Shown: positions 2,586 through 34,845, counted from the first letter of the stretch. The stretch is DNA of 64,000 nucleotides from Minisyncoccota bacterium (GCA_016782605.1 JADHYE010000001.1:11128-75127); one strand, 5' to 3'. A program made the numbers and translations. Notes: a model not told the origin generated them from the sequence alone.

Positions 2586-3002
2586 TTATTTCAATTCCAC
2601 TTTAGCTCCGGCCTCTTCAAACTTTTTCTTTAGTTCGTCAGCTTCTTCTTTCTTAGCATTCTCTTTGACTACCTGAGGGCCGGAAGCAGCTGCGTCAACC
2701 AGATCTTTAGCTTCTTTCAGTCCTTTCTGAGTGGCATCTCTGACAACTTTTATCACTTCAATCTTCTTTTCGCCGACAGCCGTTAAAACAACGTTGAACT
2801 CGCTCTTTTCTTCTTCTGCAGCTACGCCGGGAGCGGCAGCAACAGGAACAACAGCAACGGGAGCTAAAGCTGATACTCCAAACTTCTTTTCCAAAATCTT
2901 AACCAATTCAGCCAAGTCCAAAACAGACATCTTTTCAATTTCTTCAACTAGTTTTTTAAACTTTTCAGGAATCTTTACTTCTTTTTTTGTTTCTTCTGCC
3001 AT
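2586..3002 (-). CDS. rplL: 50S ribosomal protein L7/L12
   Basis: 138 aa. N-terminal dimerisation helix, Ala/Pro/Val hinge, and C-terminal domain ending ...[10 protein letters not shown]. Directly downstream of rplJ. Confidence 0.95.
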
Positions 3003-3074
3003 ATTATTTGTCGATGAAGTTTCCCCCTTCGGGGTTTGCCTTCATCTTCACTTTCGTTTTTGCTCTGCAAAAAC

Positions 3075-3587
3075 TTAGTTTTTAATTATAGTTAATAAAT
3101 ATACCAGACCTTTAAGATTATATTGCAAAGAATATACAAGGTTTGAAACCGGAGCAGAAATGCTGCCCACCAGTTTTGCCAGAAGCTCTGGCTTTGTCGG
3201 AAGCTGAGCCAAAGCAATTATGTCCTCTTTATCTTTAAATGATCCTTCAACAAATCCGCCCAAAATCTTCAAATTCTCATTAGCCAACCCTGACTGATAA
3301 ACTGTTTTTGCCGGCATTATTTCGTCTTCAAATCCGAAAACCAAACCTATTTCCTCTTTGTATTTGTTCTTGTTAAAATCCAGCTTCTTTTCCTTTAAAG
3401 CTTTTTCTATCAATGTTTTCTTAGCTACCTGCAAATTACCTCCAATCTCTTTCAGTTTCTTCCTTAAATCAGACATATCTTTCACTTTTAAACCGGCAAT
3501 GCTAATAAAAATCATTGCTTTCTGCTTGGCAATTTTATCTTTCAAATCTTCAAGTATTTTTTGTTTTTGCAGTTTGGTTTGAGCCAT
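3075..3587 (-). CDS. rplJ: 50S ribosomal protein L10
   Basis: 170 aa with L10-like sequence (MAQTKLQKQKILEDLKDKI...), immediately upstream of rplL. Confidence 0.9.
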   Translation of the reverse strand: MAQTKLQKQKILEDLKDKIAKQKAMIFISIAGLKVKDMSDLRKKLKEIGGNLQVAKKTLIEKALKEKKLDFNKNKYKEEIGLVFGFEDEIMPAKTVYQSGLANENLKILGGFVEGSFKDKEDIIALAQLPTKPELLAKLVGSISAPVSNLVYSLQYNLKGLVYLLTIIKN

Positions 3588-3850
3588 AGTGGTAATACTT
3601 AATTAATCGCGGCACGCGTCGCTTACGCTCCGCTAACACCGCTCTTTAGAAGACGAACGCAGTGAGGCGGGAAAAGAGATTTATCTCTTTGACCACTCTC
3701 GGTGCTCAATGAAGCTAAAGCTTCATTCCCCTTTCCGACATGGAATGGTTCTACTGAAACAAAAATGTCTGCTTTCCGCAGACAAAAATCAAGAAAAACT
3801 TAAAACTTTTCCTCGGCGGGTCTTATGGACGCCCACTGTCTGCGGATAAT
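3588..3850 (-). repeat. composite structured leader repeat F1, directly upstream of the rplJ ATG
   Basis: Shares the start-proximal block GCCGCGAyyTAATTArGTATTACCAyTATG and ..AAAGAGCGG.. with 33576-33870 and 57643-57794. Shares an 89-nt block (3639-3727) with 33651-33739. Confidence 0.6.
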
Positions 3851-3934
3851 ACTAATTTATTATATATCCAGAATCTTGTCAAGTGTTTCAAAAAGAGTAA
3901 GGGATCCGGTATTAAGGGCTCCCTTATGATAAAC

Positions 3935-3943
3935 ATTATACCA
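3935..3943 (-). promoter_or_regulatory. extended -10 promoter element (TGGTATAAT), candidate rplJ-rplL promoter
   Basis: Minus strand reads CCTGGTATAATG. The -35 is weak. It would give a leader of about 340 nt. Confidence 0.35.
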
Positions 3944-3992
3944 GGCATCTTTTAGTGACCTAATAATACGTATTTTAGAATTTTTGTCAAGG

Positions 3993-5021
3993 TTATTTGA
4001 AATACTTTACCTTAGCCGTATTGTGTTCGTCCAAGGTTTTGCTAAAAATAGTTTCTCCTTCCCTGGTGGAAAGATAATACCAGTAATCGCTATCTTGAAG
4101 ATAAACAGCAGCGATAATGCTTTCAAGTCCAGGATTACAAATCGGACCCAAGGGAAGCCCTTTGTATTTGTAAGTATTGTAGGGAGAATCAATTTCTGTA
4201 CCAGAAGCGATCTCTGATCTCATTTCGTCAAACGTCCAGTTTTCTTTTCCTAAGATATAAGCAATGGTGGCGCAGCTGCGCAAGGGTTCGCTATTCTCAA
4301 TCTTTCCCCAGAAAATGCCAGAAACTATTTTTTTGTCCTCCAAAGTTATTACTTCCTTCTCAAGAATACTAGCCATGGTCACTATTTCAAAAATAGTTTT
4401 GCCTTGTTTCTTAATTTCCTCTCTTAATTCAGAATTCAATTTCTTATCGAAATTAATAAGCATTTTTTCAACAACGCTTTCCATGCTTTCTTTGCTGGTT
4501 TTCTCGTAAGTATCGGGAAAAAGATATCCTTCCAGACTTAAATTCTCAGGCTTATCTCTAAGAAAAGCAAAATCAGCAGAAAAATCTTTTGAAGAAGAAC
4601 CGGTTATCGGAGAACCGACCAATCCAAAAAAATCATCAGCCCCAAATAAACCTTTGCTTTCAAAATAAGAAGCGATATCCCTTAAACTCCATCCTTCAAT
4701 AATAGTGATCTTTTCCTTTATGACATTGCCGGAAAAAAGCTTGTCAGCAATCTGAGGCATATTCATTGAAGGAGACAAAATATATTCTCCTGCTTTTAAA
4801 TAAGAAGCCATTCCCACAGTCAAAACATAAACCCGGAAAACAGGAGACCACCTTATCAATCCCTGATTTTCCAAATTCAAGCCGATGTCCCTTGAACCCT
4901 GACCCTTTTCCACGCTGAAAATAACTTCTTTTTCAGAATTCTGTTCTACGGGCAAAATAACCAGCCAGGAAGCAATCAGAACAATAATAACGACAATAAT
5001 TAAAATTAAAGATTTTTTCAC
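3993..5021 (-). CDS. mltG: endolytic murein transglycosylase, YceG/MltG family
   Basis: N-terminal TM helix followed by a YceG-like domain. The ORF-track start (5033, TTG) lies inside repeat A1. GTG at 5021-5019 gives MKKSLILII.... Confidence 0.8.
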   Translation of the reverse strand: MKKSLILIIVVIIVLIASWLVILPVEQNSEKEVIFSVEKGQGSRDIGLNLENQGLIRWSPVFRVYVLTVGMASYLKAGEYILSPSMNMPQIADKLFSGNVIKEKITIIEGWSLRDIASYFESKGLFGADDFFGLVGSPITGSSSKDFSADFAFLRDKPENLSLEGYLFPDTYEKTSKESMESVVEKMLINFDKKLNSELREEIKKQGKTIFEIVTMASILEKEVITLEDKKIVSGIFWGKIENSEPLRSCATIAYILGKENWTFDEMRSEIASGTEIDSPYNTYKYKGLPLGPICNPGLESIIAAVYLQDSDYWYYLSTREGETIFSKTLDEHNTAKVKYFK

Positions 5022-5152
5022 CCCGTATATCAACCTCCAAGCATTTTCAATGCGAAAATATCCTGAAGGCTGTCTTTATTTAATAATATATTCAACATAA
5101 TAACTTTGTTTGAGATTTTAATACGAAGTATTCTGGAAGTTGTATTACGGGG
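5021..5152 (-). mobile_element. family A hairpin (MITE-like) element, copy A1
   Basis: 132 bp. Arms are ccccgtatatcaacctccaag / ctggaagttgtattacgggg. Flanking direct repeat ttca at 5017-5020 and 5153-5156 (TGAA in gene sense). Lies between the pcm stop and the mltG start. Confidence 0.7.
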
Positions 5153-5153
5153 T

Positions 5154-5789
5154 TCATTTTTTCAATAAAGGAACGAAAATAAACCCTGGATGTTCTTTTT
5201 CTTCAAAATCAGTTTCGTTCTTTTTAATTAAAAGCCAGATTGAAGAATCAACCGGAGCAACAATCCTGCCTCCGATTTTCAGCTGCTTTTTCCAAGAATC
5301 GGGAATATTAACAGCACTAGCAGATGCTAAAATCTTGTCAAACCCTTCGACAAACTCAGGGTGAGAGGAGATATTGGGATAACCGTTGTTTCCGTCAAGA
5401 CAGAAAAACTGAACAATCCCCTTTTTAACGAAATTATATTTTGAAACGTTTTTCTCGCCAAAGTCCTTCAATTCCTGGATTATATCAAGGGAAATAACCT
5501 TTCCTTTTTTACCGACAATTTCAGCTAACAAAGCGCTGGTCCAGCCAGAGCCTGAACCAACATCCAAAACCTTATCCCCTTCATGCAAATCCAGCAATTC
5601 CATCATAAAAGCAACAACCAAAGGCTGAGAAATGGTCTGGCCGAATCCTATAGGCAAAGCCTCGTTGATCTCTGCTAAATTCTTTGAGTCTTCCGGCAAA
5701 AAATCGCTTCTCTTTATTTTTTTAAAAGCTTCTATCACTTTCGGCGTTTTCAGCCAGTTATCTTTAATTAGCTCTTCAATAAGCGGCAT
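5154..5789 (-). CDS. pcm: protein-L-isoaspartate O-methyltransferase
   Basis: 211 aa with a SAM-binding motif (VLDVGSGSGW) and a GQTISQP motif typical of Pcm. Confidence 0.85.
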   Translation of the reverse strand: MPLIEELIKDNWLKTPKVIEAFKKIKRSDFLPEDSKNLAEINEALPIGFGQTISQPLVVAFMMELLDLHEGDKVLDVGSGSGWTSALLAEIVGKKGKVISLDIIQELKDFGEKNVSKYNFVKKGIVQFFCLDGNNGYPNISSHPEFVEGFDKILASASAVNIPDSWKKQLKIGGRIVAPVDSSIWLLIKKNETDFEEKEHPGFIFVPLLKK

Positions 5790-5790
5790 A

Positions 5791-5860
5791 CTAGGTAGTA
5801 GAAATTCGACAAATTTATTTTTCTTTGCTGCCAGGCAGCAGTCGAATTTTCACTACCTGG
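5791..5860 (-). mobile_element. family B hairpin (MITE-like) element, copy B1
   Basis: 70 bp. Arms are ctaggtagtagaaattcgac / gtcgaattttcactacctgg. Flanked by cata at 5787-5790 and 5861-5864 (TATG in gene sense). 5789-5787 is the pcm ATG. Confidence 0.7.
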
Positions 5861-6312
5861 CATAGTTTTTGTGGTAAACTCATTTTATCAATAAATAGTA
5901 TTCCGTCCAAGTGGTCAATCTCGTGCTGGAAAACCCTGGCTGACAATCCATCAACTTTCATTTTGATTTTTTCCCCCTGCAGATTAAGAAACTCCAGTTC
6001 CACTTCCTTAGCTCTTTTAATCTTTAAAAACAAACCAGGAAAACTCAAGCATCCCTCTTCCATGACTTCTGTCTTTCTGCTTTTCCGCACGATCTTTGGA
6101 TTTATGAAAACTTGCGACTTTCCTTCAAAAAAAGCAGCGATTATGCTTTTTGATTCGCCGATCTGAGAAGCAGCCAATCCAATGCCGTCTTTTTCCATCA
6201 TTATCTTTTTCATTTCTTCGGCCAATATCTTCACCTCCTCGGTTATCTCCTTGATCGCAGAAGATTTCTTTCTCAGTATTGGATTTGGATATTCTAATAT
6301 TTGCTTACTCAT
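5815..6312 (-). CDS. def: peptide deformylase
   Basis: EGCLSFPG and QHEIDHLDG metal-site motifs. The last ~15 codons (CQVVKIRLLPGSKEK*) and the stop codon are encoded by element B1. Confidence 0.9.
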   Translation of the reverse strand: MSKQILEYPNPILRKKSSAIKEITEEVKILAEEMKKIMMEKDGIGLAASQIGESKSIIAAFFEGKSQVFINPKIVRKSRKTEVMEEGCLSFPGLFLKIKRAKEVELEFLNLQGEKIKMKVDGLSARVFQHEIDHLDGILFIDKMSLPQKLCQVVKIRLLPGSKEK

Positions 6313-7534
6313 GTCTTCTTAATGCATCAACTGGTTTTAATTTAGCAGCTGTCCTGGCCGGCAGAACTCCGGAAACGCAACCGATAATAAAAGAAAAAAC
6401 CAAGCCGAAAACAACCAAACCGAGGTTTACCGAAGCAGTAAAATAGAAAACAGGATGCACCTGTCCATAGAATTCAATACCTTTGGCCAGTAAGGAACCG
6501 AGCAGAGTGCCGCCTATCCCTCCAATTAAACCGACAATGCCCGCTTCAAAAAGAAATATCAAAAGGATAGCTGAGTTTTTCGCTCCAATTGCCTTCATGA
6601 TACCTATTTCTTTAGTCCTTTCTCTGACCGAAGTAAACATGCTGTTAGTAATTCCGATGCCCCCGACAATAATGGCAATGCTGGCAAAAGCAAAAATGAC
6701 CATCTGAATTATGCCCAAAATATTGCCGGCTATCGCCCCCATTTTTTCGGAAGTGATAACGGAAAAATCAGCCTCGTCGGTTCCTGACCTTCTCTTTCTT
6801 GTTTCGCTTAAGGCTTCTTCAATTTTTTGAGCCACGACATTCTCATCCACTCCGTCTTCAAGCTTAACCATGGCATAAGCAGCAGTGCCCCGCTTTTCTC
6901 CGGTAACGTCCTGGTAGACTTTCATATCCATATATACCATACTGTCGTCCTGCTTGCTGCCCAAGGAATCGAGCACTCCTGCCACCTGGAATTTTCTTCC
7001 CTTTATCGTTATTTCCGAACCGGCTTTCACTTCCTTTGAGAAAATTTCAGTGGCCACCTGGGAACCGATTAAAACTTCGTTTCCTTTGCTCGGCCACCTT
7101 CCTTCGGTCAAACTCCAGCCCTGAAAAATGCTCAAAATATCCAAACCTTCCTTCCACGGATCATAGCCGGCGATGGCTATTTGCTTTGATTCTTCCTTAA
7201 ACCTGGCAATAGCTCCGGTATAAGAAAATCCCAAAACCTTGTCTACGCCTTCTGCTTTTTTAATCGCTTCAATGTCTTCTTTCTGCAGCTTTGCGCCACC
7301 GAACATCATGGACGTAAGAAGATCTTCATCGCTGCCCGGCATAACCATAACCATTTCTCCGCCCATGGCCTGCAGCTGCTGGTTTATCGTTGATTTCAAT
7401 CCTTCTGACAGAGAAAGCAGGGAAATTATTAAAAAAACGCCAATGACAATGCCTAAAATAGTAAGAAAACTTCTCAATGACCTTGTTCTGATATTTCTGA
7501 CGGCAATATTAAAATATTCTTTTAATTCTTCCAT
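6305..7534 (-). CDS. ABC transporter permease, MacB/FtsX type
   Basis: 409 aa. N-terminal TM helix, large extracytoplasmic domain, three C-terminal TM helices. Overlaps the neighbouring ATPase gene. Confidence 0.85.
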   Translation of the reverse strand: MEELKEYFNIAVRNIRTRSLRSFLTILGIVIGVFLIISLLSLSEGLKSTINQQLQAMGGEMVMVMPGSDEDLLTSMMFGGAKLQKEDIEAIKKAEGVDKVLGFSYTGAIARFKEESKQIAIAGYDPWKEGLDILSIFQGWSLTEGRWPSKGNEVLIGSQVATEIFSKEVKAGSEITIKGRKFQVAGVLDSLGSKQDDSMVYMDMKVYQDVTGEKRGTAAYAMVKLEDGVDENVVAQKIEEALSETRKRRSGTDEADFSVITSEKMGAIAGNILGIIQMVIFAFASIAIIVGGIGITNSMFTSVRERTKEIGIMKAIGAKNSAILLIFLFEAGIVGLIGGIGGTLLGSLLAKGIEFYGQVHPVFYFTASVNLGLVVFGLVFSFIIGCVSGVLPARTAAKLKPVDALRRHE

Positions 7535-8235
7535 AAATAGTCTTTGGCAGTGGAATGGTTTTCAACTATCATGCCGTCTTCAATGTTTACTACCTGTTCG
7601 GCATAATTGGCGATCTTTGCATCATGGGTGACTACGACAACGGTCTTGCCCTCATTCTTGTGAAAATCGGTCAGCACTTCCATTATCTTTTCCCCGGTAA
7701 CAGAATCCAAATTTCCCGTCGGCTCGTCAGCGATAATCACTTCGGGATGATTGGCAAAAGCCCTGGCAATAGCCACTCTCTGGCGTTCGCCTCCGGAAAG
7801 CTCTCCTGGCCCATGGAAAATCCTATCCTCCAAATCAACGGAAACTAAAATGTCTTTTGCCCTCTTTTTTCTTTCTTCCTGGGCTATACCCTGAAAAGTC
7901 ATGGGTAGCATTACGTTTTCAATAGCTGAAAGATTAGAAAGTAAATTGAATTCCTGAAAAATAAAACCGAGTATCTTACCACGAAATTGAGCCAGTTGGC
8001 TTTCTGCCATTAAAGAAATGTCTTTGCCTTTTAAAAAAACTTTTCCCTTTGTCGGCGAATCCAAACAGCCGATAATATTTAAAAGAGTTGATTTGCCCGA
8101 GCCCGAAGACCCCATAATCGCCACAAAAGCGCCTGGAAAAATTTCCAGGCTCAATCCTCTTAAAGCGTGAACTTCTGTCTTTCCTAATTCGTAAGTTCTC
8201 CAGACATTATCCAGTTTAATAATTGGCTCTGCCAT
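7522..8235 (-). CDS. ABC transporter ATP-binding protein (MacB/LolD-like)
   Basis: Walker A GSSGSGKST, signature LSGGERQR, Walker B IIADEPTGNLD. Confidence 0.9.
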   Translation of the reverse strand: MAEPIIKLDNVWRTYELGKTEVHALRGLSLEIFPGAFVAIMGSSGSGKSTLLNIIGCLDSPTKGKVFLKGKDISLMAESQLAQFRGKILGFIFQEFNLLSNLSAIENVMLPMTFQGIAQEERKKRAKDILVSVDLEDRIFHGPGELSGGERQRVAIARAFANHPEVIIADEPTGNLDSVTGEKIMEVLTDFHKNEGKTVVVVTHDAKIANYAEQVVNIEDGMIVENHSTAKDYLWKN

Positions 8236-9776: not shown

Positions 9777-10084
9777 ATGTTTTGCTTAATTATTATTTGA
9801 TGCCAGTCCTCGTAGCAATATATTCCCTGGAACATCCAACCGACGAGAAAACCGGCAGAAAGGGTAAAAAACAAAGGCGAAAATCGATATTTCTTTCTTA
9901 AAAAAAATATAAGAAAGCACAATAAAGTCATTGAAATCAGCCAGTGATGCAAATGAATATGCCATCCCCACACATTAAAAGCCAAACTAAACAAGCCGAT
10001 ATCTCCTGTTTTTTCTCCGGCTAAAAACTTGCCAGTAAAATATCCAGCTGATGAACCTGTAAAAAATCCTAATAAAGTTCCCAT
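9773..10084 (-). CDS. small hypothetical membrane protein
   Basis: 103 aa, hydrophobic. Overlaps the adaptor gene start by 4 nt. Confidence 0.4.
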   Translation of the reverse strand: MGTLLGFFTGSSAGYFTGKFLAGEKTGDIGLFSLAFNVWGWHIHLHHWLISMTLLCFLIFFLRKKYRFSPLFFTLSAGFLVGWMFQGIYCYEDWHQIIIKQNI

Positions 10085-10091
10085 ATTTTTG

Positions 10092-10163
10092 CGGGGGCGC
10101 CAGGATTCGAACCTAGAACAGAAATTTTGGAGATTCCCATGATAGCCATTTCACCACGCCCCC
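10092..10163 (-). tRNA. trnW: tRNA-Trp (anticodon CCA)
   Basis: 72 nt, hand-folded. Acceptor GGGGGCG/CGCCCCC, anticodon loop CTCCAAA, T-loop TTCGAAT. No encoded CCA. Confidence 0.85.
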
Positions 10164-10167
10164 GTAT

Positions 10168-10500
10168 TTACATATTTCGTCTTGCGCAAAAAGCGTACTG
10201 CAAGAAATAATCATCAAGGTCTTTAAGCGAACTATTGTATTCTTTGCCACCGGTAACAGCATCGCAAAATAATTCTTTTACTCTGGCAATTTCCCTAATT
10301 CTTCCACTCAATCTTGGATCTATAAGAGTCAAATCAAACAACTCCAAAGCCCTGGCAACTGCTCCCCAAAAAGTATCTTCATCTTCCCCCTGCCATTTTC
10401 TAGCCCTGCTAACCTCACTACCGATATTAGCCATTTGCTCAATTAATGAAAGCTTGAACCATCTCCCCGATGAAAGGTCTTTGTGCAAGGTTTTTGTCAT
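10168..10500 (-). CDS. hypothetical helical protein
   Basis: 110-aa ORF. Overlaps the upstream ORF by 4 nt (ATGA-type coupling). Family not recognised with certainty. Confidence 0.4.
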   Translation of the reverse strand: MTKTLHKDLSSGRWFKLSLIEQMANIGSEVSRARKWQGEDEDTFWGAVARALELFDLTLIDPRLSGRIREIARVKELFCDAVTGGKEYNSSLKDLDDYFLQYAFCARRNM

Positions 10501-10847: not shown

Positions 10848-10942
10848 ATTGCTTATTTGCTTGCCGAGCTGCAGCAAGATAGAAGAAGAGATTTATCTCT
10901 TCGCTTCTTTGTGAAAACTAACTAAAAAGCACTTATATGAAT

Positions 10943-10970
10943 ATTATATCTAAAAAATAGATTATTACAA
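10943..10970 (-). promoter_or_regulatory. sigma70-like promoter TTGTAA-N16-TATAAT
   Basis: -35 at 10970-10965 and -10 at 10948-10943 on the minus strand, upstream of the 10847/10500 gene pair. Confidence 0.5.
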
Positions 10971-12276: not shown

Positions 12277-12348
12277 ATGTTTTTATTGTTATTATTTGAT
12301 AAGGCGATGAAGATAAATCTTCATCTTCTCTCTTCTTTGCGACTCGAG

Positions 12349-12421
12349 AGCCTGAGGCCGGGATTGAACCGGCGGCCTCGTCTTTACCAAAGACGTGCTC
12401 TACCAACTGAGCTACCCAGGC
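12349..12421 (-). tRNA. trnT: tRNA-Thr (anticodon GGT)
   Basis: 73 nt. Acceptor GCCTGGG/CTCAGGC, anticodon arm CGTCT-TTGGTAA-AGACG, T-loop TTCAATC. Confidence 0.85.
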
Positions 12422-12433
12422 AAAAAATAACAG

Positions 12434-12518
12434 TGGGTGTGGTCGGAGTCGAACCGACGGGATCTAATAAGACAGCGGTTTTACAGACCGTTCCCGCCCC
12501 CTACGGGACTACACACCC
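12434..12518 (-). tRNA. trnY: tRNA-Tyr (anticodon GTA), long variable arm
   Basis: 85 nt. Acceptor GGGTGTG/CACACCC, anticodon loop CTGTAAA, T-loop TTCGACT. Confidence 0.8.
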
Positions 12519-12690: not shown

Positions 12691-13347
12691 TTATAATTTT
12701 CCAATTGATTTGCCGTATTTTCTCCTCCAGGCTTCTATCATTTTGTGATTACCCGAAACCAAAACTTTAGGTACCCGCCATTTCTGGAAAACTTCAGGCC
12801 TGGTGTATTGCGGATATTCCATAAATCCCTTTTCCTTAGTTATCCTTTCTTTCAATAAAGCAGGTTTGCCCAAAACTCCAGGTATTAACCTTGTTATGGT
12901 TTCCATAACTATCATTCCAGGCAACTCCCCTCCCATCAAGTCGTAGTCGCCAACTGACAACTCCATATCAGCAATGTGTTTGGCTACTCTTTCATCAACC
13001 CCTTCATACCGGCCGCAAATCATAATTATCTGGTTTAATTTTGACAACTGATAAGCTGTTTTCTGATTGAATTTCTTTCCCCGGGGAGTAAATAATATGA
13101 CTTTTGTTTTGCCTTTGCCTTTTATCTTTCTAACAGCTTTATATATGGACTCTACCTTCAAAACCATACCCAGCCCTCCGCCAAAAGGCCTATCATCAAC
13201 TGTTTTGCGCTGATCTTTGGCCCAGTCCCTCAAATTATGGACATTTATCTTAATCAATTTCTTTTCCCTGGCTTTCTTAATAAAAGACTCCTTCAGATAA
13301 GAATCGAATATTTGGGGAAAGATTGTAATAATATCAAATTTAAGCAT
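12691..13347 (-). CDS. trmD: tRNA (guanine37-N1)-methyltransferase
   Basis: 218 aa, TrmD-like throughout (MLKFDIITIFPQIF..., GGELPGM). Confidence 0.9.
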   Translation of the reverse strand: MLKFDIITIFPQIFDSYLKESFIKKAREKKLIKINVHNLRDWAKDQRKTVDDRPFGGGLGMVLKVESIYKAVRKIKGKGKTKVILFTPRGKKFNQKTAYQLSKLNQIIMICGRYEGVDERVAKHIADMELSVGDYDLMGGELPGMIVMETITRLIPGVLGKPALLKERITKEKGFMEYPQYTRPEVFQKWRVPKVLVSGNHKMIEAWRRKYGKSIGKL

Positions 13348-13348
13348 A

Positions 13349-13480
13349 CCCTGTATATCAACATCCAGGCATTTTCAATGCGAAAACACCCTGAAGATTG
13401 TCTTTATTTAATAATATATTTAACATAATAACTTTGTTTGAGATTTTAATACGAAGTATTCTGGATGTTGTATTACGGGG
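13349..13480 (-). mobile_element. family A element, copy A2
   Basis: 132 bp, flanked by cata at 13345-13348 and 13481-13484. 13347-13345 is the trmD ATG. Confidence 0.7.
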
Positions 13481-13544
13481 CATAAAAACAAAAACGGCCT
13501 ATTTTGAACAATAGCACCGTTTTTGCACTCTGTAAACTTAGAGT

Positions 13545-14447: not shown

Positions 14448-15137
14448 TTACCAATGTTTGACTGCTAAAGCGTTTTTCGCTGCCTCAACTTCTGCTTCTT
14501 GTTTTGAAGATCCTTTGCCTTCGGCCACTAAATCCTTATCAAGGAAAACGCCGATAACGAAATTCTTTGCGTGATCCGGCCCGTGTTCTTTCAAAACTTT
14601 ATAGGTCGGAGTAATGCCCACTCTTTCTTGGGCTGCTTCCTGGAAAGTGGATTTAGCATCCCTGAAAAGACCTTTCTCAATGATTTCCGGCAATTTAACG
14701 ATTAAATTCTTTTTAATGAATTTTTCGCATGCTTTATAGCCTGAATCAAGGTAAGCTGAACCGATAAACGCTTCAAAAGTGTTGGCCAGGATATAATCCC
14801 TTGATTTGCCTGTTTCTTTCATTTCTCCTTTTGAAAGAAGCAAAAAATCATTAAAGCCCAATTCCTTAGCAACCTCAGCAAGCATTTTAGCATTAACCAG
14901 AGAAGCGCGCCAGTTGGTCAATTCGCCTTCCGGCTTTTTGGGATATTTGACAAAAAGGTGTTCGGTAATAATAAGTTCCAAAACCGCATCTCCCAAAAAT
15001 TCCAGTCTTTCATTGTTATCCAGATTGGCTTTCGGATTCTCGTTCAGATAGGAGCGATGGCAAAAAGCCTGAATCAATAAATCCTTGTTTTTGAATTTAA
15101 AATTTAATTGCTTTTCCAATATTGAAAAATCATTCAT
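14448..15137 (-). CDS. rnc: ribonuclease III
   Basis: Signature NERLEFLGDAVLE and a C-terminal dsRBD (..GSSKQEAEVEAAKNAL). Confidence 0.9.
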   Translation of the reverse strand: MNDFSILEKQLNFKFKNKDLLIQAFCHRSYLNENPKANLDNNERLEFLGDAVLELIITEHLFVKYPKKPEGELTNWRASLVNAKMLAEVAKELGFNDFLLLSKGEMKETGKSRDYILANTFEAFIGSAYLDSGYKACEKFIKKNLIVKLPEIIEKGLFRDAKSTFQEAAQERVGITPTYKVLKEHGPDHAKNFVIGVFLDKDLVAEGKGSSKQEAEVEAAKNALAVKHW

Positions 15138-15267
15138 ATACCGAGTCCGCCCAAGGCGGGCGAAGGTGAAGAAGAGGTTTACCTCTTCGACTTACTTTTC
15201 TAATACCGAGTCCGCCCAAGGCGGGCGAAGGTGAAGAAGAGGTTTACCTCTTCGACTTACTTTTCTA
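15138..15267 (-). repeat. perfect 65-bp tandem duplication (2 units) of a two-hairpin intergenic module that includes the nusB stop codon
   Basis: 15138-15202 and 15203-15267 are identical by eye. Each unit contains GTCCGCC-caa-GGCGGGC and GAAGAGG-ttta-CCTCTTC hairpins plus ..cttacttttcta (the last nusB codons). Confidence 0.8.
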
Positions 15268-27087: not shown

Positions 27088-27091
27088 AGAT

Positions 27092-27790
27092 TTACTCAGT
27101 TTTTCTCCAATCTTCTTTGGCTGAAATATCTTTTCCTTTTTCTTCATTAACTATTTCCACTCCGGAACTAGTGCCGATAATATCAGCTCCAGCTTTAATC
27201 ATCATTTCCAAATCAGCAAGAGTCCTAATAAAGCCTGCTACTTTAACCAGTATGCCGGGAGCTGATTCGCGCATTATCCTGACGTGCTTTGCTTTTTCAG
27301 CTAGTTCTGAATGGTCTAAAGGATCTTCAACCGTGGCTGTCTTAACACAAATTGCCCTAGCTTCCTTGACAATCTCTGAAGCTTTTTTAATTTCCTCGTC
27401 AGTCAAATAGCCAGAGCCGATTATCACTTTTGTCGGCAAAACAGCACAAATCTCTTTCAAATCAGACAAAACCTCGTCATATTTACCGTTCTTGAAATCA
27501 TCTATCTTCATTACCACGTCAACCTCGTCAGACCAATCTTCTTTAGCTCTCAAAACCTTTTTCATCCTGATTTCATGAGGGCTGGCTCCTGTTGGCTCAT
27601 CAATCAAAGTGGTAACCTTAACATCGCTGTCTAACAATGATTCTTTGGCTAATTTGGTGTGTTCTGGATAAACGCAAAGTCCCCGGAAACCGTATTCTCT
27701 TGTTTCCTGGCAAACCTTCTTAATCTCCTGTTCTAAAGCTCCTTTTTTAAGAAATGTCTGGTCTATTAATTTAGCTGTGTTTGGCTGCAT
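27092..27790 (-). CDS. DeoC/LacD-family aldolase (deoxyribose-phosphate aldolase-like)
   Basis: 232 aa. ..IDQTFLK.. start and an ICVKTAT segment in the position of the Schiff-base lysine motif. Confidence 0.65.
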   Translation of the reverse strand: MQPNTAKLIDQTFLKKGALEQEIKKVCQETREYGFRGLCVYPEHTKLAKESLLDSDVKVTTLIDEPTGASPHEIRMKKVLRAKEDWSDEVDVVMKIDDFKNGKYDEVLSDLKEICAVLPTKVIIGSGYLTDEEIKKASEIVKEARAICVKTATVEDPLDHSELAEKAKHVRIMRESAPGILVKVAGFIRTLADLEMMIKAGADIIGTSSGVEIVNEEKGKDISAKEDWRKTE

Positions 27791-28565
27791 AATAAACGTT
27801 TTTTAATAATAAGGCGACTGTTAAGGGGCCCAAGCCTCCTGGCACTGGTGTTAAAAAATCAGCTTTGCCAGCTACGCTTTTTCTGTCCACATCCCCTACT
27901 ACTTTTTTATTCTTCAAAACAACAATGCCTCCATCAATCAAAACAACACCTTTTTTAATCATATCCCCTTTTATATAATTAGGAAATCCACAAGCTGAAA
28001 TAACAATATCAGCTGATTTAATCTCAGGGCTTTTCCTGTTTTTAAGATAACTAATTTTAATTCTCTCTTTTATAAGAGAAGATTTTAGAACATTGCCGAA
28101 AAAATCAGAATTAACCAAAGCAATAATCTTTTTACCTTTAAGGTTTTTGGATGAATCTTTTAAGGCGATAAGAATGGCCGAAATCAAAGGAGAAGAAAAA
28201 TGTGTTTTCTTCTGGAAACCGTCAACATCTTTGTGAAAATCTATCTTTTCTGTAATCTTCCTTGCTTTTAACTTAGAGGGTAATGGCAATTGGACAATGA
28301 TTCCTGCAACGTCTTTATCTTTATTCAATGCTTCAATCTGCCGCACAATCTCTTTTTCCTTAACTTTGCTGTTAAATTTAGAATAGAGAATTCCAATACC
28401 CACTTCTTCAGCCGCCCTTTTTTTGTTCCTAATAAAAAGCTCTGAAGCAGGATCTTTTCCGACTGAAATTACCGCCAGCTTTAATTTCATTCTTTCTTTC
28501 CTGATTCTTTTTTTCAAATCCGACAAGATTTTATCCGCTTTCTTTTTACCATCGAAAATTATCAT
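27771..28565 (-). CDS. folD: bifunctional methylenetetrahydrofolate dehydrogenase/cyclohydrolase
   Basis: ..IIVQLPLP.. and ..TPVPGGLGPLTVA.. motifs. Confidence 0.85.
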   Translation of the reverse strand: MIIFDGKKKADKILSDLKKRIRKERMKLKLAVISVGKDPASELFIRNKKRAAEEVGIGILYSKFNSKVKEKEIVRQIEALNKDKDVAGIIVQLPLPSKLKARKITEKIDFHKDVDGFQKKTHFSSPLISAILIALKDSSKNLKGKKIIALVNSDFFGNVLKSSLIKERIKISYLKNRKSPEIKSADIVISACGFPNYIKGDMIKKGVVLIDGGIVVLKNKKVVGDVDRKSVAGKADFLTPVPGGLGPLTVALLLKNVYYAAKHS

Positions 28566-28597
28566 AAATTGAAGATTTATTAAAATCTTAGATGAGT

Positions 28598-29872
28598 TTA
28601 AAATTTGAACTCATCGTAAATGGGAAACTTCTTGGTTATTCTTTCCACCTCGCTCTTAATCAAATTTTTAATTTTCCGGCTATCAATATTTTTAATAAGC
28701 TTGACGATAAGGCGAGTAATCTCCCTTGATTCTTTCTCTTCCAAGCCCCTAGTGGTGATTGCCGGCGTTCCCAACCTAATACCCGAAGGAAAATAAGGAG
28801 GTTTTTTATCAAAAGGAATGGCGCTTCTGTTAACGTAAATGCCAACCTTATCCAATTCGTTCTGAATTTCCTTCGAGCCAACGCTAAAAGGAGAAACGTC
28901 TATTACCATCAAATGATTATCTGTTCCCCCGCTGATTACCCTGATTCCCTGCTTCTGGAATTCATCAGCCATGGCTTTGGCATTCAGAATAATCTGTTTT
29001 TGGTACTTCCTAAAAGAGGGTTTCATTGCTTCCAAAAAGCAAACAGCTTTAGCAGCAATAACATGTTCCATCGGCCCACCCTGGATACCAGGAAAAACAG
29101 CTTTGTCGATTTTTTGCGCTAAATTTAATTTGCTCTTAAGATTAAATCTGTCTTTAATTTTGCAAAGAATCAGTCCTCCGCGAGGGCCCCTAAGAGTTTT
29201 ATGAGTAGTCGTTGTCACGATATCGCACCAGGGGAAAGGATTGGGATGAACACCAGCAATAACCAAACCGGCGATATGAGCGATATCAGCCATTAAATAT
29301 GCTTTAGCTTTATCAGCAATCTTCCTGAACGCTTTAAAATCAAGAGTTCTTGAATATGAGGTTGTGCTGACAATGATTAATTTCGGCTTGAACTTTAAAG
29401 CTATTTTTTTCACTTCTTTCAAATCAATCTTTTCCGTTTCCCGATCAACCCCGTAATGGGAAAAATTATACAATTTTCCGGAAAAATTAACCGGCGAGCC
29501 GTGCGTCAGATGACCACCAGCCGACAAATCAATGCCCAGTACTCTATCCTTATAGTCCAACAACGCTAAATAAACGGCTGCATTCGCCTGGGAACCAGAA
29601 TGGGGCTGAACATTGGCATGTTCTGCCCCAAACAACTTCTTGGCCCTTTCTATGGCTGTCTGTTCAACCTCATCAATGAATTCATTGCCGCTGTAATACC
29701 TTTTATATGGATAACCTTCAGAATATTTATTGCTCAAAGGCGTGCCCATAACAGACAAGACCTCAGGACTGGCGTAATTTTCCGAGGGAATCAAAACAAG
29801 GCCCTGTTTCTGGCGCAAAATCTCCTTTTTAACCAAGTTATATATTTTAGAATCTGATTTTAAAAGCTTCAT
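28598..29872 (-). CDS. glyA: serine hydroxymethyltransferase
   Basis: 424 aa with the PLP-lysine motif TTTTHKTLRGPRGG. Confidence 0.95.
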   Translation of the reverse strand: MKLLKSDSKIYNLVKKEILRQKQGLVLIPSENYASPEVLSVMGTPLSNKYSEGYPYKRYYSGNEFIDEVEQTAIERAKKLFGAEHANVQPHSGSQANAAVYLALLDYKDRVLGIDLSAGGHLTHGSPVNFSGKLYNFSHYGVDRETEKIDLKEVKKIALKFKPKLIIVSTTSYSRTLDFKAFRKIADKAKAYLMADIAHIAGLVIAGVHPNPFPWCDIVTTTTHKTLRGPRGGLILCKIKDRFNLKSKLNLAQKIDKAVFPGIQGGPMEHVIAAKAVCFLEAMKPSFRKYQKQIILNAKAMADEFQKQGIRVISGGTDNHLMVIDVSPFSVGSKEIQNELDKVGIYVNRSAIPFDKKPPYFPSGIRLGTPAITTRGLEEKESREITRLIVKLIKNIDSRKIKNLIKSEVERITKKFPIYDEFKF

Positions 29873-29889
29873 TTCACTTCCCTAATTTT

Positions 29890-30408
29890 TTAAGATTTTT
29901 CTCGAATTTTTCTTTCCAAGGTTACAAAGTTATATTTATAAGAATTATCTTTATCAGGGTTATTTTCAATTCTTCCAATTTCTATCCAATCATTCCAATC
30001 AAATTCTGGGAAATAAGCATCAGCTTCGAACTCTCCCTCAATTAAAGTTAGATACATTCTATCGGCTAATAGTAAAAATTGACGATAAATTGACACTCCG
30101 CCACAAATCATTACCTCATCAAAATTTTTGGCAGCTTCTAACGCCCCTTCTATTGAATGAGTAACTAAGCAATCAGGTGGAATAAAATTTTTATCCAAAG
30201 TTAAAATAATATTAGTCCGCCCTGGTAACGGCTTACCGATGGATTCAAAAGTTTTTTGCCCCATAATTACTGGTTTCCCCATAGTCAGTTGACGAAAATG
30301 TTTCATATCGGCCGGCAAATTCCAAGGCAACTTATTTTTGATACCAACTACCCAATTATTACCTACGGCTGCAATTATTGAAATTAGACACTTGTCCTTT
30401 TTTTTCAT
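29890..30408 (-). CDS. folA: dihydrofolate reductase
   Basis: 172 aa with ..LPW.. and ..GRKTFESIG-like (GQKTFESIGKPLPGR) motifs. Confidence 0.85.
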   Translation of the reverse strand: MKKKDKCLISIIAAVGNNWVVGIKNKLPWNLPADMKHFRQLTMGKPVIMGQKTFESIGKPLPGRTNIILTLDKNFIPPDCLVTHSIEGALEAAKNFDEVMICGGVSIYRQFLLLADRMYLTLIEGEFEADAYFPEFDWNDWIEIGRIENNPDKDNSYKYNFVTLERKIREKS

Positions 30409-30487
30409 TATATGATATTATATCCTAAGGTTAGAAAATATACAACGTTAAAAATCTTATTTTTTAAATTTAGATTAAATTCTTATT

Positions 30488-31030
30488 ATGAATAAAAAAC
30501 ACAAATGCATTATATTAAACTATTCAGAGCTTAAAAGGGTTGTTGATGCCCACAAAACTTTAGAGCATAAAATTATCTGCACTGTTGGTTCCTGGGATAT
30601 GCTTCATATAGGGCACTTGCGTTATCTTATTAAAGCGAAGGGACAAGGCGATGTGCTCGTTGTAGGAGTGGATAATGATAGGGGAATAAAGTTGTATAAA
30701 AAGAATGAGTTGAGACCTGTTATCCCCCAAGAAGAAAGAATGGAAATGCTTAGTTATCAAGACTGTGTTGACTACGTTACCTTGATAGAGGATATAGATG
30801 ATAACGGCGAATGGCAGTATGAATTAATAAAGACAATAAAACCCCATCTTTTTGTCACAACCACGGACAGCTACCCAGAAGAACAAATTAAAGATATTGG
30901 GCTACACGTTGATAATGTTTTAATTTTGCCAAGACAGGCAGAAAACACTTCGACTACACAAATTATAGAAAGAATGATAAAAAAACATTTAGAAGTAATG
31001 CTCTCTAATATAACAAAGAAAGGAAAATGA
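30488..31030 (+). CDS. cytidylyl/adenylyltransferase-family nucleotidyltransferase
   Basis: HIGH-type motif GSWDMLHIGHLRYL. Substrate unknown. Confidence 0.6.
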   Translation: MNKKHKCIILNYSELKRVVDAHKTLEHKIICTVGSWDMLHIGHLRYLIKAKGQGDVLVVGVDNDRGIKLYKKNELRPVIPQEERMEMLSYQDCVDYVTLIEDIDDNGEWQYELIKTIKPHLFVTTTDSYPEEQIKDIGLHVDNVLILPRQAENTSTTQIIERMIKKHLEVMLSNITKKGK

Positions 31031-31467
31031 AAAAGTTTGTTAATATAAAAAATGCAAGACGCGGAGAATATCGAAAAGTAATAAAGGAAATAGCCCTAAA
31101 GGGCGAATGTCCTTTCTGCCCAGAAAATTTCAAATATCACAAAAAACCAATCTTCAAACGAAAGGAAGATTGGTTTTTAACAAATGATAGCTGGCCCTAT
31201 AAAAATACCAGTTGCCATCTTATTATCTTGGGGAAAAAACATAAAGAAAAATTTCAAGAATTAACAAAAAAAGATTTAGAATCTGTAGCTTACTTAACTC
31301 GCTGGGCAATTAAAAAATACAAAATTAAAGGAGGTGGATTGGCGATAAGATTTGGCAATACGGATTTTACTGGAGCTTCCGTTACTCATATTCACTTCCA
31401 CTTAATTTCACCAAAAATAGATAAAAAAACAAAATACGCAAAAACAGTGAATTTTCCTATAGGATAA
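31027..31467 (+). CDS. HIT-superfamily nucleotide hydrolase/transferase
   Basis: CPFCPEN zinc-type motif and histidine triad THIHFHLI. Overlaps the upstream gene by 4 nt. Confidence 0.6.
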   Translation: MKKFVNIKNARRGEYRKVIKEIALKGECPFCPENFKYHKKPIFKRKEDWFLTNDSWPYKNTSCHLIILGKKHKEKFQELTKKDLESVAYLTRWAIKKYKIKGGGLAIRFGNTDFTGASVTHIHFHLISPKIDKKTKYAKTVNFPIG

Positions 31468-31469
31468 AT

Positions 31470-32291
31470 TCAAACAGCTATCTCCCCTTTAATCGGTGGA
31501 TAAGGATTATATCCCTCAAGTTGAAAATTTTCATAATCAAAATCAAAGATGTTTTTTATTTTAGGGTTAAGAATCATTTTAGGTAAAGGTCTGGGTTCGC
31601 GGGTTAATTGAAGTTTAACTTGTTCAATATGGTTGAGATAAAGATGGGTGTCAGATAAGGTATGCACAAATTCATAGGCTTTTAATCCAGTAACCTGTGC
31701 CATCATCATCAACAATAAAGAATAAGAAGCGATATTAAAGGGGATACCAAGGAAAACGTCGCAGCTCCGCTGAAAAAGATGCAAAGATAATTTTCCCTGT
31801 ACGTGAAAAAATTTAAAAAAACAGTGGCAAGGAGCAACAAAAACTTTATCAACATCTTCCGGATCCCAAGAGGTAACAACTAAACGTCGGGAATCAGGAA
31901 AATTTTTAAGCTCTTCAATAACATTTGATATTTGGTCAATTACTCTACCGTCTCGAGTTTTCCAACAACGCCATTTCTCGCCGTAAATCGGACCCAGTTC
32001 ACCAGGAGGCAAATTATACTTAGCCGTAGCCTCTGGCATTGCCCACTCATCCCAAATTGTCACTCCATGGTCTTGCAAATACTTTACATTGGTATCTCCT
32101 CGTAAAAACCATAATAATTCATAAATAATTGATTTTAAGGACATCTTTTTTGTGGTAAGTAAAGGGAAACCATCATCCATTTTAAATCGCATCTGATAAC
32201 CACAAACAGCAATATTCCCTATGCCTTGTGGGTCGTTTTTTCTTTCTCCATTTTCTAAAACATATTTTAATAAATCTAAATACTGCTTCAT
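31470..32291 (-). CDS. thyA: thymidylate synthase (ThyA type)
   Basis: Collinear with E. coli ThyA. Catalytic APCH, QRSCD, FNIASY and DTHLY are present. The NDRTGTGT loop reads NDPQGIGN here. Confidence 0.9.
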
Positions 32292-32297
32292 GATTTT

Positions 32298-33149
32298 TTA
32301 TTGTAAAAGATTTTGAGGAATATGTATAATTTCGACCCCAGCTGCCTCTAAGGTTTTTCTCCCATCAAGATTTGAAGCTCCTTCAGAAAAATAGACTTCC
32401 TTAATCCCAGCCCAAGCAATAAGTTTTGCACACAATGAACAGGGAAAATGAGTAAGATAAAGAAATAAACCCTCTAATTTAATTCCGTTTTTAGCGGATT
32501 CGGAAATAAGTTTTTGCTCGGCATGAATAGTTGGAGAAAAATCTTGTTTCTCCCCGGCTTGAAAAAAATCTCTTACTGAGCCAACCTGATAAGGAGTACT
32601 ATCGTTTGGTACCCCTTGGTTATAAGAACGAGCTATTATTTTTTTATTCTTTAGCAAGACCGCTCCAATTTGACGCCACCAATCACTACTTTTTTGAGCT
32701 TCTTTATAAGCTTCTTTCATTATTTCTATGTCAAAATTATCCGTCGAAACCTTAATATCGTCTATCGGTAAATCGGCCACAACTTTTTCCTTATCCCATC
32801 GAAGAAAAACTGATTCCCATTCTATGTTTTCTCCTTTTAAATATTTTTCTTCCAAATTTCGGGAAATTTCGTCTTGGATAAGAATGATTTCTTTGCCCTT
32901 CAGCTCTCCAATGCTGTTTTTGGAAAGAATTGAAACATTTTTAAAATCGAATTTTTCTAATAAATCCTTCACTGTATTTACATCTAAAGAAGCAATATCC
33001 TGTTTAATATCAGAAAGTTCTTTTTGAAAAGTTTCATCAATGATATATATATTAGAAATTCTATCTAATTTTTTTTTAAAAAAATCTAAATAACCCTTAT
33101 GGATTACAGGAATATGAATAATGAGATTTTTATTTCTCATAAAATACAA
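32298..33149 (-). CDS. dCMP deaminase domain fused to an N-terminal domain of unknown function
   Basis: The C-terminal half has zinc motifs HAE...PCSLC. The first ~140 aa are unassigned. Confidence 0.7.
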   Translation of the reverse strand: MYFMRNKNLIIHIPVIHKGYLDFFKKKLDRISNIYIIDETFQKELSDIKQDIASLDVNTVKDLLEKFDFKNVSILSKNSIGELKGKEIILIQDEISRNLEEKYLKGENIEWESVFLRWDKEKVVADLPIDDIKVSTDNFDIEIMKEAYKEAQKSSDWWRQIGAVLLKNKKIIARSYNQGVPNDSTPYQVGSVRDFFQAGEKQDFSPTIHAEQKLISESAKNGIKLEGLFLYLTHFPCSLCAKLIAWAGIKEVYFSEGASNLDGRKTLEAAGVEIIHIPQNLLQ

Positions 33150-33152
33150 GTA

Positions 33153-33575
33153 TCACTCAATGGTAATGCCCATGTTCTTAGCCGTACCCTCAATTATTTT
33201 CATTGCCTGTTCGATGTCATCTGCGTTCAAATCAGGCATCTTTTTCAAAGCTATTTCTTTCAATTGTGCCCTTGAAATCTTGGCCACTTTAGTTTTATTG
33301 GGAGTGCCAGAGCCCTTTTCAATGCCAGCTGCTTTTTTCAATAATTCGGAAGCTGGCGGCTGCTTCAAGATAAAAGTATAGGTTCTGTCCTCAAAAACCG
33401 TGATTTCAACCGGAATAACGAAACCCTGGTTGTTTTTGGTCGCATCGTTGAACCTCTGGCAGAACTCGGATATGTTCACTCCGTATTGAGCCAAAACAGG
33501 ACCGACCGGAGGAGCCGGAGTCGCCAGAGCTGCTTTAATTTGAAGTTTTACGATTGCTTTTACTTTTTTTGCCAT
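33153..33575 (-). CDS. rplK: 50S ribosomal protein L11
   Basis: 140 aa. [26 protein letters not shown].. is canonical L11. Confidence 0.95.
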
Positions 33576-33870
33576 AGTGGTAATACCTAATTAAGTCGCG
33601 GCTCGCGCATATTATATATTAATATATTGCCTTCGGCGAATGTGCTACTGCCGCTCTTTAGAAGACGAACGCAGTGAGGCGGGAAAAAAGATTTATCTCT
33701 TTGACCACTCTCGGTGCTCAATGAAGCTAAAGCTTCATTTCGGTCTGCGCTTCCGTGAACGGAAGCTTGCCTTCTAACGTTTTCCACCTCATCGGCGGAA
33801 ATCCTGTTTTCCTATACGGAAGAACCTGATGGTTCTTCCGACCCATCTCCGATATGGGATACTATTACGT
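33576..33870 (-). repeat. composite structured leader repeat F2, directly upstream of the rplK ATG
   Basis: Shares the start-proximal block with F1 and F3, block 33651-33739 with F1, and block 33807-33868 with F3 (57726-57787). Confidence 0.6.
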
Positions 33871-34031
33871 TAATTATTAATTGTTCAAGCGAGGCAACAA
33901 GTTTTAAAGTAGCTCTCGGAAGCCTATTTGCATGGTTCGCCGGAAGCGAAAATAGGCTGAGAGCGCAACTCCCAAAATCTCGCAGGGATTTTGAGAAGCG
34001 GTACTTTCAAAACTTAGTTGCCGAGCACCCC

Positions 34032-34577
34032 TTATAGTTTCTTTATCTGTAAAGAATCCAGTTCAACGGGAGTATCTCTGCCAAACATATTAACCAATAC
34101 CTTTACCTTTCCCCTCTCCTGGTCAACCTCTGAAACCTTTCCGTCAAAATCCTTGAATGGGCCGTCAATAATTTTAACCAAATCCCCTGGCTTGGCTTCT
34201 ATCTTGAAATGCGGCTCATCTCCGGCAATACGCTTCTTTAAAGTTTCAATCTCTTCTACGGAAACTGGCACTGGTGTTGTGCCTGCTCCGACAAAACCAG
34301 TAACATTAGGCGTGTTTCTAACCACGTACCAGGAATCATCGGTCACGATCATTTCCACCAAAACGTAGCCAGGATAAATCTTTTCTTCTATCGTTTTTCT
34401 TTTGCCGTTCTTAATCTTAATCTTTTTCTCTTTGGGAACGATGACGTTGAATATCTTGTCTTCCATGCCCAAAGATTCAACCCTTTGCTTTAAAGCTTTG
34501 GCCACAGCGTCCTCATACCCGGAATAAGTATGGAGAACATACCAATTTTTTTCTGTGCTGATTTGCTGTTTTGGCAT
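34032..34577 (-). CDS. nusG: transcription termination/antitermination factor NusG
   Basis: NGN domain (WYVLHTYSGYE) and a KOW motif (GDLVKIIDGPFKDFDGKV). Confidence 0.9.
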   Translation of the reverse strand: MPKQQISTEKNWYVLHTYSGYEDAVAKALKQRVESLGMEDKIFNVIVPKEKKIKIKNGKRKTIEEKIYPGYVLVEMIVTDDSWYVVRNTPNVTGFVGAGTTPVPVSVEEIETLKKRIAGDEPHFKIEAKPGDLVKIIDGPFKDFDGKVSEVDQERGKVKVLVNMFGRDTPVELDSLQIKKL

Positions 34578-34582
34578 ATAAT

Positions 34583-34777
34583 TTAAAAAACAAACTTCTC
34601 CAGCAAAGTGGTAAACAAAACGTCAAGCCCTCCCAAATAGGCAGCGACAACCGCTGAAACACCGACCACAATCAAAGTGTATCTTATGGTCGTTTCTCTG
34701 GTCGGCCAATTAACCTTCCTCATCTCCAATCTTACTTCTTTTAAAAAAGTAATAAGTTTATTAATAATTTTTCCCAT
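34583..34777 (-). CDS. secE: preprotein translocase subunit SecE
   Basis: Single TM helix with ..EMRKVNWPTR.. motif. Start moved to MGKIINK... Lies upstream of nusG. Confidence 0.75.
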   Translation of the reverse strand: MGKIINKLITFLKEVRLEMRKVNWPTRETTIRYTLIVVGVSAVVAAYLGGLDVLFTTLLEKFVF

Positions 34778-34845
34778 GTTTTTGAGTCTAAAAAACGGCC
34801 TAACGGCCACAAGTTAAACTTAGCCGAAAACAAACTAGATGTCAA

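Follow-up and report, generated by a model that had tools for sequence, protein, structure and literature searches.

The DNA considered here is a 64,000-nucleotide stretch from a Minisyncoccota bacterium (GCA_016782605.1, JADHYE010000001.1:11128-75127; referred to below as the window, GC = 0.387), in which rplK, the gene for ribosomal protein L11, lies 30 kb from rplJ and rplL, the genes for L10 and L7/L12, and in which we found no rplA, the gene for L1. L1 forms the mobile ribosomal stalk that aids release of tRNA from the E site. An initial annotation, made from the sequence alone, had described secE-nusG-rplK as followed by a deoxycytidine monophosphate (dCMP) deaminase fusion gene rather than by rplA-rplJ-rplL, and had placed rplJ-rplL (2586-3587) 30 kb from rplK, downstream of mltG. 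Pfam profile searches of the window's open reading frames (ORFs), almost all of which could be annotated in this way, bear out every gene named at the first site, and gene identities and coordinates agree at the second.

Two separate ribosomal protein units

The genes of both units lie on the minus strand. The first unit opens with secE (34583-34810; Pfam SecE, 3e-19), which starts at a GTG at 34810, the ATG at 34777 that had been annotated initially being an alternative start. It continues with nusG (34032-34577; NusG 5e-30, KOW 8e-9) and rplK (33153-33575; L11 2e-29, L11_N 4e-24), the last ribosomal gene of the unit. Behind rplK lie the dCMP deaminase fusion of 283 amino acids (32298-33149), in which the match to dCMP_cyt_deam_1 (2e-20) covers residues 140-255 only, and thyA (31470-32291; 6e-109), which belongs to a deoxythymidine monophosphate (dTMP)/folate cluster together with folD (27771-28565), glyA (28598-29872) and folA (29890-30408), likewise identified with Pfam. 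Because only 3 nt separate the rplK stop from the TTG start of the fusion (12 nt from its first ATG), 6 nt separate the fusion from thyA, and a scan for terminators predicted none behind rplK, the three genes are probably co-transcribed.

The second unit consists of rplJ (3075-3587; Ribosomal_L10 7e-18) and rplL (2586-3002; Ribosomal_L12 6e-25, L12_N 2e-16), downstream of mltG, also called yceG (3993-5021; YceG 8.5e-71). Sequence scans predict a σ70-like promoter, TTGACA-17-TAAATT, at 3882-3854 upstream of rplJ, an L10(L12)4 leader at 3863-3751 (matching RF00557) with an attenuator hairpin and U-run at 3784-3766, and, at the end of the unit, an intrinsic-terminator-like hairpin with a 20-bp stem and a T-run at 2577-2534. 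In an alignment of six loci, the leader retains an invariant UCCG.AGACAG.GGG ... CCCGCCGAGGA core and a GUCUGCG hairpin with its U-run. The leader abuts the rplJ ATG in the related loci L092, L085, L089 and L081; in the window it is separated from that ATG by an insertion of about 165 nt (3588-3750) composed of the repeat modules D3 and D5 described below. With promoter, leader and terminator of its own, rplJ-rplL looks like an autonomous, autoregulated unit.

No L1 gene in the DNA inspected

The DNA inspected from this organism amounts to about 98 kb, comprising the window and three further contigs (L097, L099 and L101). The ENA contigs of the same organism were reached through matches to an orphan ORF behind rplL and to a peptide encoded by a repeat; of these, L097 and L098 come from other samples and are at least 99.9% identical to the window, and L099 is 99.96% identical to it across a 17-kb overlap. 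For comparison, we fetched 80 loci, selected through rplK, from contigs representing one genome per species, and a further 16 metagenome loci found with the window's L10.

An Escherichia coli L1 query gave a best match at E > 1 in tblastn and phmmer searches of the six-frame translation of the window. With this query, rplA was detected immediately behind rplK in 38 of the 80 loci, including ten from the Candidate Phyla Radiation (CPR) at 38-50% identity. From these 38 products and E. coli L1 we built a hidden Markov model (HMM) of 39 sequences, ten of them CPR L1 proteins. It detected L1 at E < 1e-5 in 39 of the 80 control loci, always directly after rplK (39/39), whereas no match among the remaining 41 was better than E of about 0.5, and none in the window better than E = 8.6. 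Since close relatives supply positive controls, the failure to find L1 carries weight for the DNA examined. A remnant or pseudogene of rplA after rplK was considered and ruled out, as the HMM found no match among six-frame fragments of at least 25 amino acids in the window, and no rplA was found in the roughly 34 kb of further DNA from the same organism. Both the query and the HMM thus uphold the initial statement that the window contains no L1 gene. Its caution that 64 kb cannot establish loss of L1 also holds, and applies equally to the 98 kb now inspected.

The split is shared with L1-bearing Parcubacteria

The closest genomes are metagenome-assembled genomes (MAGs) of Candidatus Nealsonbacteria, in the lineage Patescibacteria > Parcubacteria group. 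Locus L001 shares 85% identity in L11, 90% in NusG and 83% in GyrB with the window, and a second Nealsonbacteria locus, L002, shares 83%, 83% and 77%. In a neighbor-joining tree of NusG and L11 (about 320 residues), all L1-less loci included except L076, from Berkelbacteria, fall into one clade, with the window deep inside it beside L001. At least 1 kb of sequence is available after rplK in 36 of the 41 loci without rplA.

Comparison of gene order across these loci shows what sets the L1-less clade apart. The order gyrB-secE-nusG-rplK is kept in the CPR-type loci that reach far enough upstream. Parcubacteria-type loci with L1 continue as rplK-rplA-dCMP deaminase (L028, L036, L039, L042 and L065, and L080 after a gap of about 0.9 kb), and L1-less loci as rplK-dCMP deaminase (L001, L003, L005, L007, L008, L013, L018 and L025, among others). 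In none of the CPR loci, be they L1-bearing or L1-less, does rplJ or rplL come within 10 kb of rplK; non-CPR controls, such as those from cyanobacteria and Firmicutes, have the classical rplK-rplA-rplJ-rplL order. At the other site, the metagenome relatives that reach far enough share the order HlyD-ABC-FtsX-def-PCMT-mltG-spacer-rplJ-rplL-convergent large gene, and none of the metagenome L10 loci has rpoB after rplL, or L1. Because L1-bearing Parcubacteria have the same split, the separation of rplKA from rplJL is, on this comparison, ancestral and goes back further than the disappearance of L1. By the same gene-order evidence, that disappearance came about when a single gene was cut out cleanly between rplK and the deaminase gene, with no pseudogene left behind. 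The initial annotation had called the cluster broken and had suggested a synteny comparison with relatives. That comparison finds the same layout in them; the separation is real, but it is not a local rearrangement, being common to L1-bearing Parcubacteria as well.

Further traits of the organism agree with this placement. On L099, immediately to the right of the window, S5 (321-812) and L15 (817-1263) are separated by 4 nt; no L30 gene lies between rpsE and rplO there, since L15 follows directly after S5. This result, from a check on L30 that had also been suggested initially, matches a CPR-wide trait. The window genes show no Shine-Dalgarno signal: a core motif (GGAG, GAGG or AGGA at −20 to −4) precedes 6 of the 57 genes, equal to the random expectation of 10.6%.

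A group of Parcubacteria termed OD1-L1 is defined by the absence of rpL1, according to a passage in PMC5220378 that quotes Brown et al. 2015. The absence has been confirmed again on 897 CPR genomes, 69 of them complete, in a study that also reports overlap between the group missing L1 and the lineages without the anti-Shine-Dalgarno motif (bioRxiv 10.1101/2022.01.07.475337); the lack of Shine-Dalgarno signals in the window fits OD1-L1 on account of that overlap. The organism resembles OD1-L1 in its Nealsonbacteria-like placement, in having no rplA at the ancestral site or elsewhere in the DNA inspected, in missing L30 between S5 and L15, and in making no use of Shine-Dalgarno sequences, and nothing contradicts membership. 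We conclude that the window very probably comes from an L1-less, Nealsonbacteria-like member of the Parcubacteria (OD1-L1) that carries the ancestral rplKA/rplJL split. The initial suggestion that the missing L1 would fit the loss reported for some Parcubacteria-type CPR lineages is thus backed by both clade placement and literature.

Weighing the absence of rplA

Several observations weigh against this conclusion. The absence of rplA is shown directly for only about 98 kb of the genome. The Berkelbacteria locus L076 also has no rplA next to rplK, although an unusual L1 has been reported for Berkelbacteria (bioRxiv 10.1101/2022.01.07.475337), so that absence beside rplK is no proof of absence. 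In the tree, the L1-bearing locus L037 sits near the base of the L1-less clade, so that L1 may have been lost once or a few times. Lastly, the L10 leader of the window scores 40.9 bits (E 3e-5) against an RF00557 gathering score of 44, a score that the orthologous leaders of L089 (50.4 bits) and L085 (44.7 bits) pass.

The first two of these points would also suit a genome in which rplA had moved elsewhere, outside the window, and the L1 stalk was normal. Relocation nevertheless appears improbable to us: L1 lies directly after rplK in each of the 39 L1-positive loci (in a set selected through rplK), the window sits deep in a clade whose members lack rplA at that site, and the closed 1.16-Mb genome of Ca. 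Nealsonbacteria DGGOD1a (CP092821), from the same candidate phylum, is reported to lack L1 (bioRxiv 10.1101/2022.04.20.488981), in a group that is defined by that absence. MAG contigs can in principle be chimeric, and the break might then reflect a false join, in assembly or binning, after rplK or after rplL. We saw no sign of this and consider an artifact very unlikely, as the rplK-deaminase junction recurs in the eight independent relatives listed above, the arrangement mltG-rplJ-rplL-orphan ORF-convergent gene is found at 99.98-100% identity in L097 and L098 and at about 90% in L092, and GC and GC skew continue unbroken across both junctions.

The remaining alternative is that L1 has been replaced by an unrecognizable divergent or fused analog, for which the N-terminal domain of the deaminase fusion would be the candidate. 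This uncharacterized domain of 139 amino acids (32733-33149, minus strand) occupies the site that rplA holds in L1-bearing relatives, has no match in Pfam or PDB, and is kept in L004 (48% identity) and L008 (59%) with an invariant IPVIHKG motif. A comparison with the L1 profile by hhalign gave a probability of 0.1% (E 0.42), and with no Pfam or PDB relative either, a diverged L1 was ruled out. The domain is moreover fused to an enzyme of dTMP synthesis within a dTMP gene cluster, and the closest relative, L001, appears to manage without it: what follows its rplK resembles a deaminase only weakly and over a short stretch (24% identity, about 134 residues), which suggests that L001 lacks this fusion. 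An L1 analog at this position thus seems to us about as implausible as an assembly artifact. Loss of rplA in the ancestry of the OD1-L1 lineage remains the explanation that we prefer.

Repeat elements inserted at start codons

The window also carries families of short repeats, several of which touch the two ribosomal protein units. The most distinctive family, D1, measures about 135 nt, has 20-nt terminal inverted repeats, and is present in seven close copies (5020-5157, 13342-13487, 41785-41929, 47107-47252, 47803-47950, 54735-54878 and 57046-57192) and one diverged copy, upstream of gyrB (36867-37022), in the window, with another in L101 (9998-10141). Across about 1.1 Mb of related loci, a search for D1 returned one marginal match only. 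In every copy, the start codon of the host gene follows 10 nt after an internal stop (8 nt in the case of the mltG GTG), in the configuration TGA-TATACAGGGT-ATG. An empty site in L085 and L086 shows that D1 went in precisely at the start codon of trmD, whose ATG is duplicated around a 134-nt insert. An intact 41-codon ORF (MPRNTTSRILRIKISNKVIMLNILLNKDNLQGVFALKMPGC) opens at the duplicated ATG in the copy on L101 and in six of the seven close copies in the window, and the diverged copy at gyrB has an in-frame ORF of 46 codons with the same geometry.

This start-codon geometry implies that D1 elements shift the gene starts of mltG, rpsI and gyrB. The mltG ORF extends to a TTG at 5033, but this codon is disfavored because it lies inside the repeat element and because of the same geometry; the true start is probably the GTG at 5021. 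Similarly, rpsI probably starts at the ATG at 54739, with which the gene call for S9 on L099 agrees, and gyrB at the ATG at 36871.

In their layout, D1 elements resemble mycobacterial interspersed repetitive units (MIRUs), which are inserted at start codons and contain an internal ORF that enters translational coupling with the host gene (PMC12548453). Both are short repeats at start codons whose internal ORF ends near the start codon of the host gene. They differ in that D1 is about 135 nt long and the stop of its upstream ORF (uORF) precedes the ATG by 10 nt, whereas the MIRU ORF overlaps by 4 nt, and in that the CPR host lacks Shine-Dalgarno signals; the likeness rests on layout, and no sequence relationship is expected. 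By analogy, coupling of the D1 uORF to the host gene would preserve expression of the latter. A shallow literature search found no description of such elements for CPR bacteria.

A second set of modules fills the spacer between nusG and rplK, which extends over 456 nt (33576-34031, minus strand) and contains D5 (33576-33607), D3 (33644-33739), D8 (33807-33868) and a long hairpin (33869-34031). Its predicted fold is unusually stable (−163 kcal/mol, z = −7.1). We considered an RNA of known type or a conserved leader of rplK/L1 and ruled both out, since the spacer matches nothing in Rfam even with E allowed up to 10 and is absent in the closest relatives, the corresponding spacers of L001-L003 measuring only about 7-20 nt. 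As it is missing in relatives and its modules are repeated elsewhere in the window, we take the spacer to consist of recent insertions.

Copies of modules from this spacer, 88-99% identical, also lie upstream of rplJ and rpsK. The 96-nt module D3 (33644-33739) is 96-99% identical to 3632-3727 upstream of rplJ, a module of about 30 nt directly 5′ of the ATG is common to rplK, rplJ and rpsK, and a 62-nt module is common, at about 90% identity, to the nusG-rplK and rpsM-rpsK (57644-57792) spacers. The 149-nt cassette between rpsM and rpsK is present in the window and in L099 and absent from L100, which belongs to the same population and is otherwise 99.9% identical; judged from these contigs, it is a presence/absence polymorphism within the population. 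That D1 is genome-specific and the related rpsM-rpsK cassette polymorphic is evidence for mobility of the repeats.

The nearly identical cassette shared by rplK and rplJ, made up of the 96-nt module and the module of about 30 nt next to the start, might be read not as selfish DNA alone but as a cis-regulatory RNA that re-couples expression of the stalk-base proteins L11 and L10/L12 after the loss of L1 feedback on rplK, a reading to which we assign little probability. More likely than this, in our view, is that MIRU-like elements with a uORF offer a general way for repeats to spread without silencing genes in CPR genomes that lack Shine-Dalgarno signals.

Further intergenic repeats were seen at 5787-5864, at 59903-59983 and upstream of 52266, as well as at 43323-43461 and 63717-63839, with copies in L101 at 1906-2044 and 14630-14752. 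One family gives three genes an identical 25-nt 5′ flank (ATTTGTCGAATTTCTACTACCTAGT-ATG), and its copy at 5815-5864 is at the same time the 3′ end of the def ORF. The nusB-rnc spacer (15133-15262) holds a perfect-register tandem duplication with a 65-nt unit, 97% identity and two GC-rich hairpins. Many gene starts in the window have an A/T-rich −10-like hexamer a few nucleotides upstream, a hint of leaderless or short-leader mRNAs.

The gene behind rplL and the remaining window

Between rplL and a convergent gene lies the orphan ORF mentioned above, a variable insert of 214 amino acids (206 as called in ENA) with a hydrophobic N-terminus (1739-2383, minus strand). It has no Pfam match, and its GC content is 0.496 compared with 0.387 for the window. 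Among relatives, it occurs only in the two closest loci, in L092, whose overall nucleotide identity to the window is about 90-93%, and in L082, at 38-49% identity beside flanking genes at 84-99%; it is absent from L081, L088, L090 and L091. A search of 5.8 billion proteins returned a single match, 100% identical. The ORF carries promoter-like and terminator-like signals of its own. It has an SD-like AGGA in a genome otherwise without Shine-Dalgarno signals. Of the convergent gene beyond it, which encodes 705 aa, the window contains the 3′ part, its left edge cutting through the gene.

Given the deviating GC content, patchy presence, low identity and single database match, the description of this gene as foreign-looking is fair, and by these measures it is a fast-evolving or acquired gene. 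The initial annotation had set it in the place of rpoB/rpoC after rplL, which the composition and distribution of the ORF and the absence of the rpo genes support: there is no rpoB or rpoC in the window, in which no ORF other than dnaE (1082 aa) exceeds 700 aa, nor in the 10 kb further left on L097.

The remaining ORFs of the window are housekeeping genes, among them dnaE, thrS, gatCAB, pheST, gyrB, alaS and folD-glyA-folA, together with the series rpsM-rpsK-rpsD-rpoA-rplQ-rplM-rpsI. Two full-length MreB paralogs lie within 5 kb of each other (43738-44790 and 48846-49847; Pfam MreB_Mbl 1e-133 and 3e-138). In other bacteria, the genes for tRNA-Trp and tRNA-Thr/Tyr usually flank tuf and secE. 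Here tRNA-Trp (10091-10163) and tRNA-Thr/Tyr (12348-12516) stand 22-24 kb from secE, among unrelated genes (those for a DUF5674 protein and a zinc-ribbon protein, and trmD); with those tRNAs so far from secE, the classical region is fragmented in more than one place.

Discussion

In E. coli, these genes form the secE-nusG-rplKAJL-rpoBC region, in which L1 autoregulates the L11 operon; the L10(L12)4 leader is one of three widespread bacterial leaders of ribosomal protein genes, and an L1-binding leader is another (PMC3616713). The window shares with E. coli a contiguous secE-nusG-rplK and an adjacent rplJ-rplL preceded by a predicted L10(L12)4 leader. It differs in having no rplA, in the position of rplJ-rplL 30 kb away behind mltG, in the lack of rpoBC after rplL, and in the dTMP-synthesis genes that follow rplK. 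Without rplA there would be no L1 repressor and, presumably, no leader that binds L1. In Methanococcus vannielii, rplK stands apart from rplA, and rplA-rplJ-rplL are co-transcribed (PMC3616713), which shows, as the window does, that the genes for L11 and for L10/L12 can be uncoupled in nature. The archaeal split, however, falls between rplK and rplA and L1 is kept, whereas in Parcubacteria it falls between rplA and rplJ, and in the clade of the window L1 is gone.

These comparisons suggest a course of events. In Parcubacteria generally, secE-nusG-rplKAJL-rpoBC is already divided, with gyrB-secE-nusG-rplK-rplA before a cluster of deaminase and thyA for dTMP synthesis and rplJ-rplL as a unit of its own behind mltG. 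An ancestor of the OD1-L1 lineage would then have lost the L1 gene, so that in the L1-less clade rplK and the deaminase gene came to be neighbors without a trace of rplA. As the last ribosomal gene of its unit, rplK would now be read through into the deaminase fusion and thyA. If rplA is absent, rplK would be free of the L1 feedback known from other bacteria, and rplJ-rplL would be governed by its own promoter, by an attenuator leader predicted to bind L10(L12)4, and by a strong terminator. The ribosome presumably functions with an L1 stalk that lacks the L1 protein, a state that may be tolerable for slow-growing episymbionts.

The L1-less ribosome of this Parcubacteria group is a real oddity, whose loss of L1 has been documented since 2015 and confirmed on closed genomes. 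Its absence here is a correct re-observation of a published trait, to which the window adds one member. The minor descriptive additions are the ancestral rplKA/rplJL split, the clean excision of rplA before the deaminase gene, and the apparent retention of the L10 leader; in the OD1-L1 literature examined, we found no description of an excision of rplA from rplK-rplA-deaminase with rplJ-rplL already separate. The repeat elements at start codons are the only part with potential for discovery. They could be a CPR counterpart of the mycobacterial MIRUs and offer a handle on how translation is initiated in genomes that lack Shine-Dalgarno signals.

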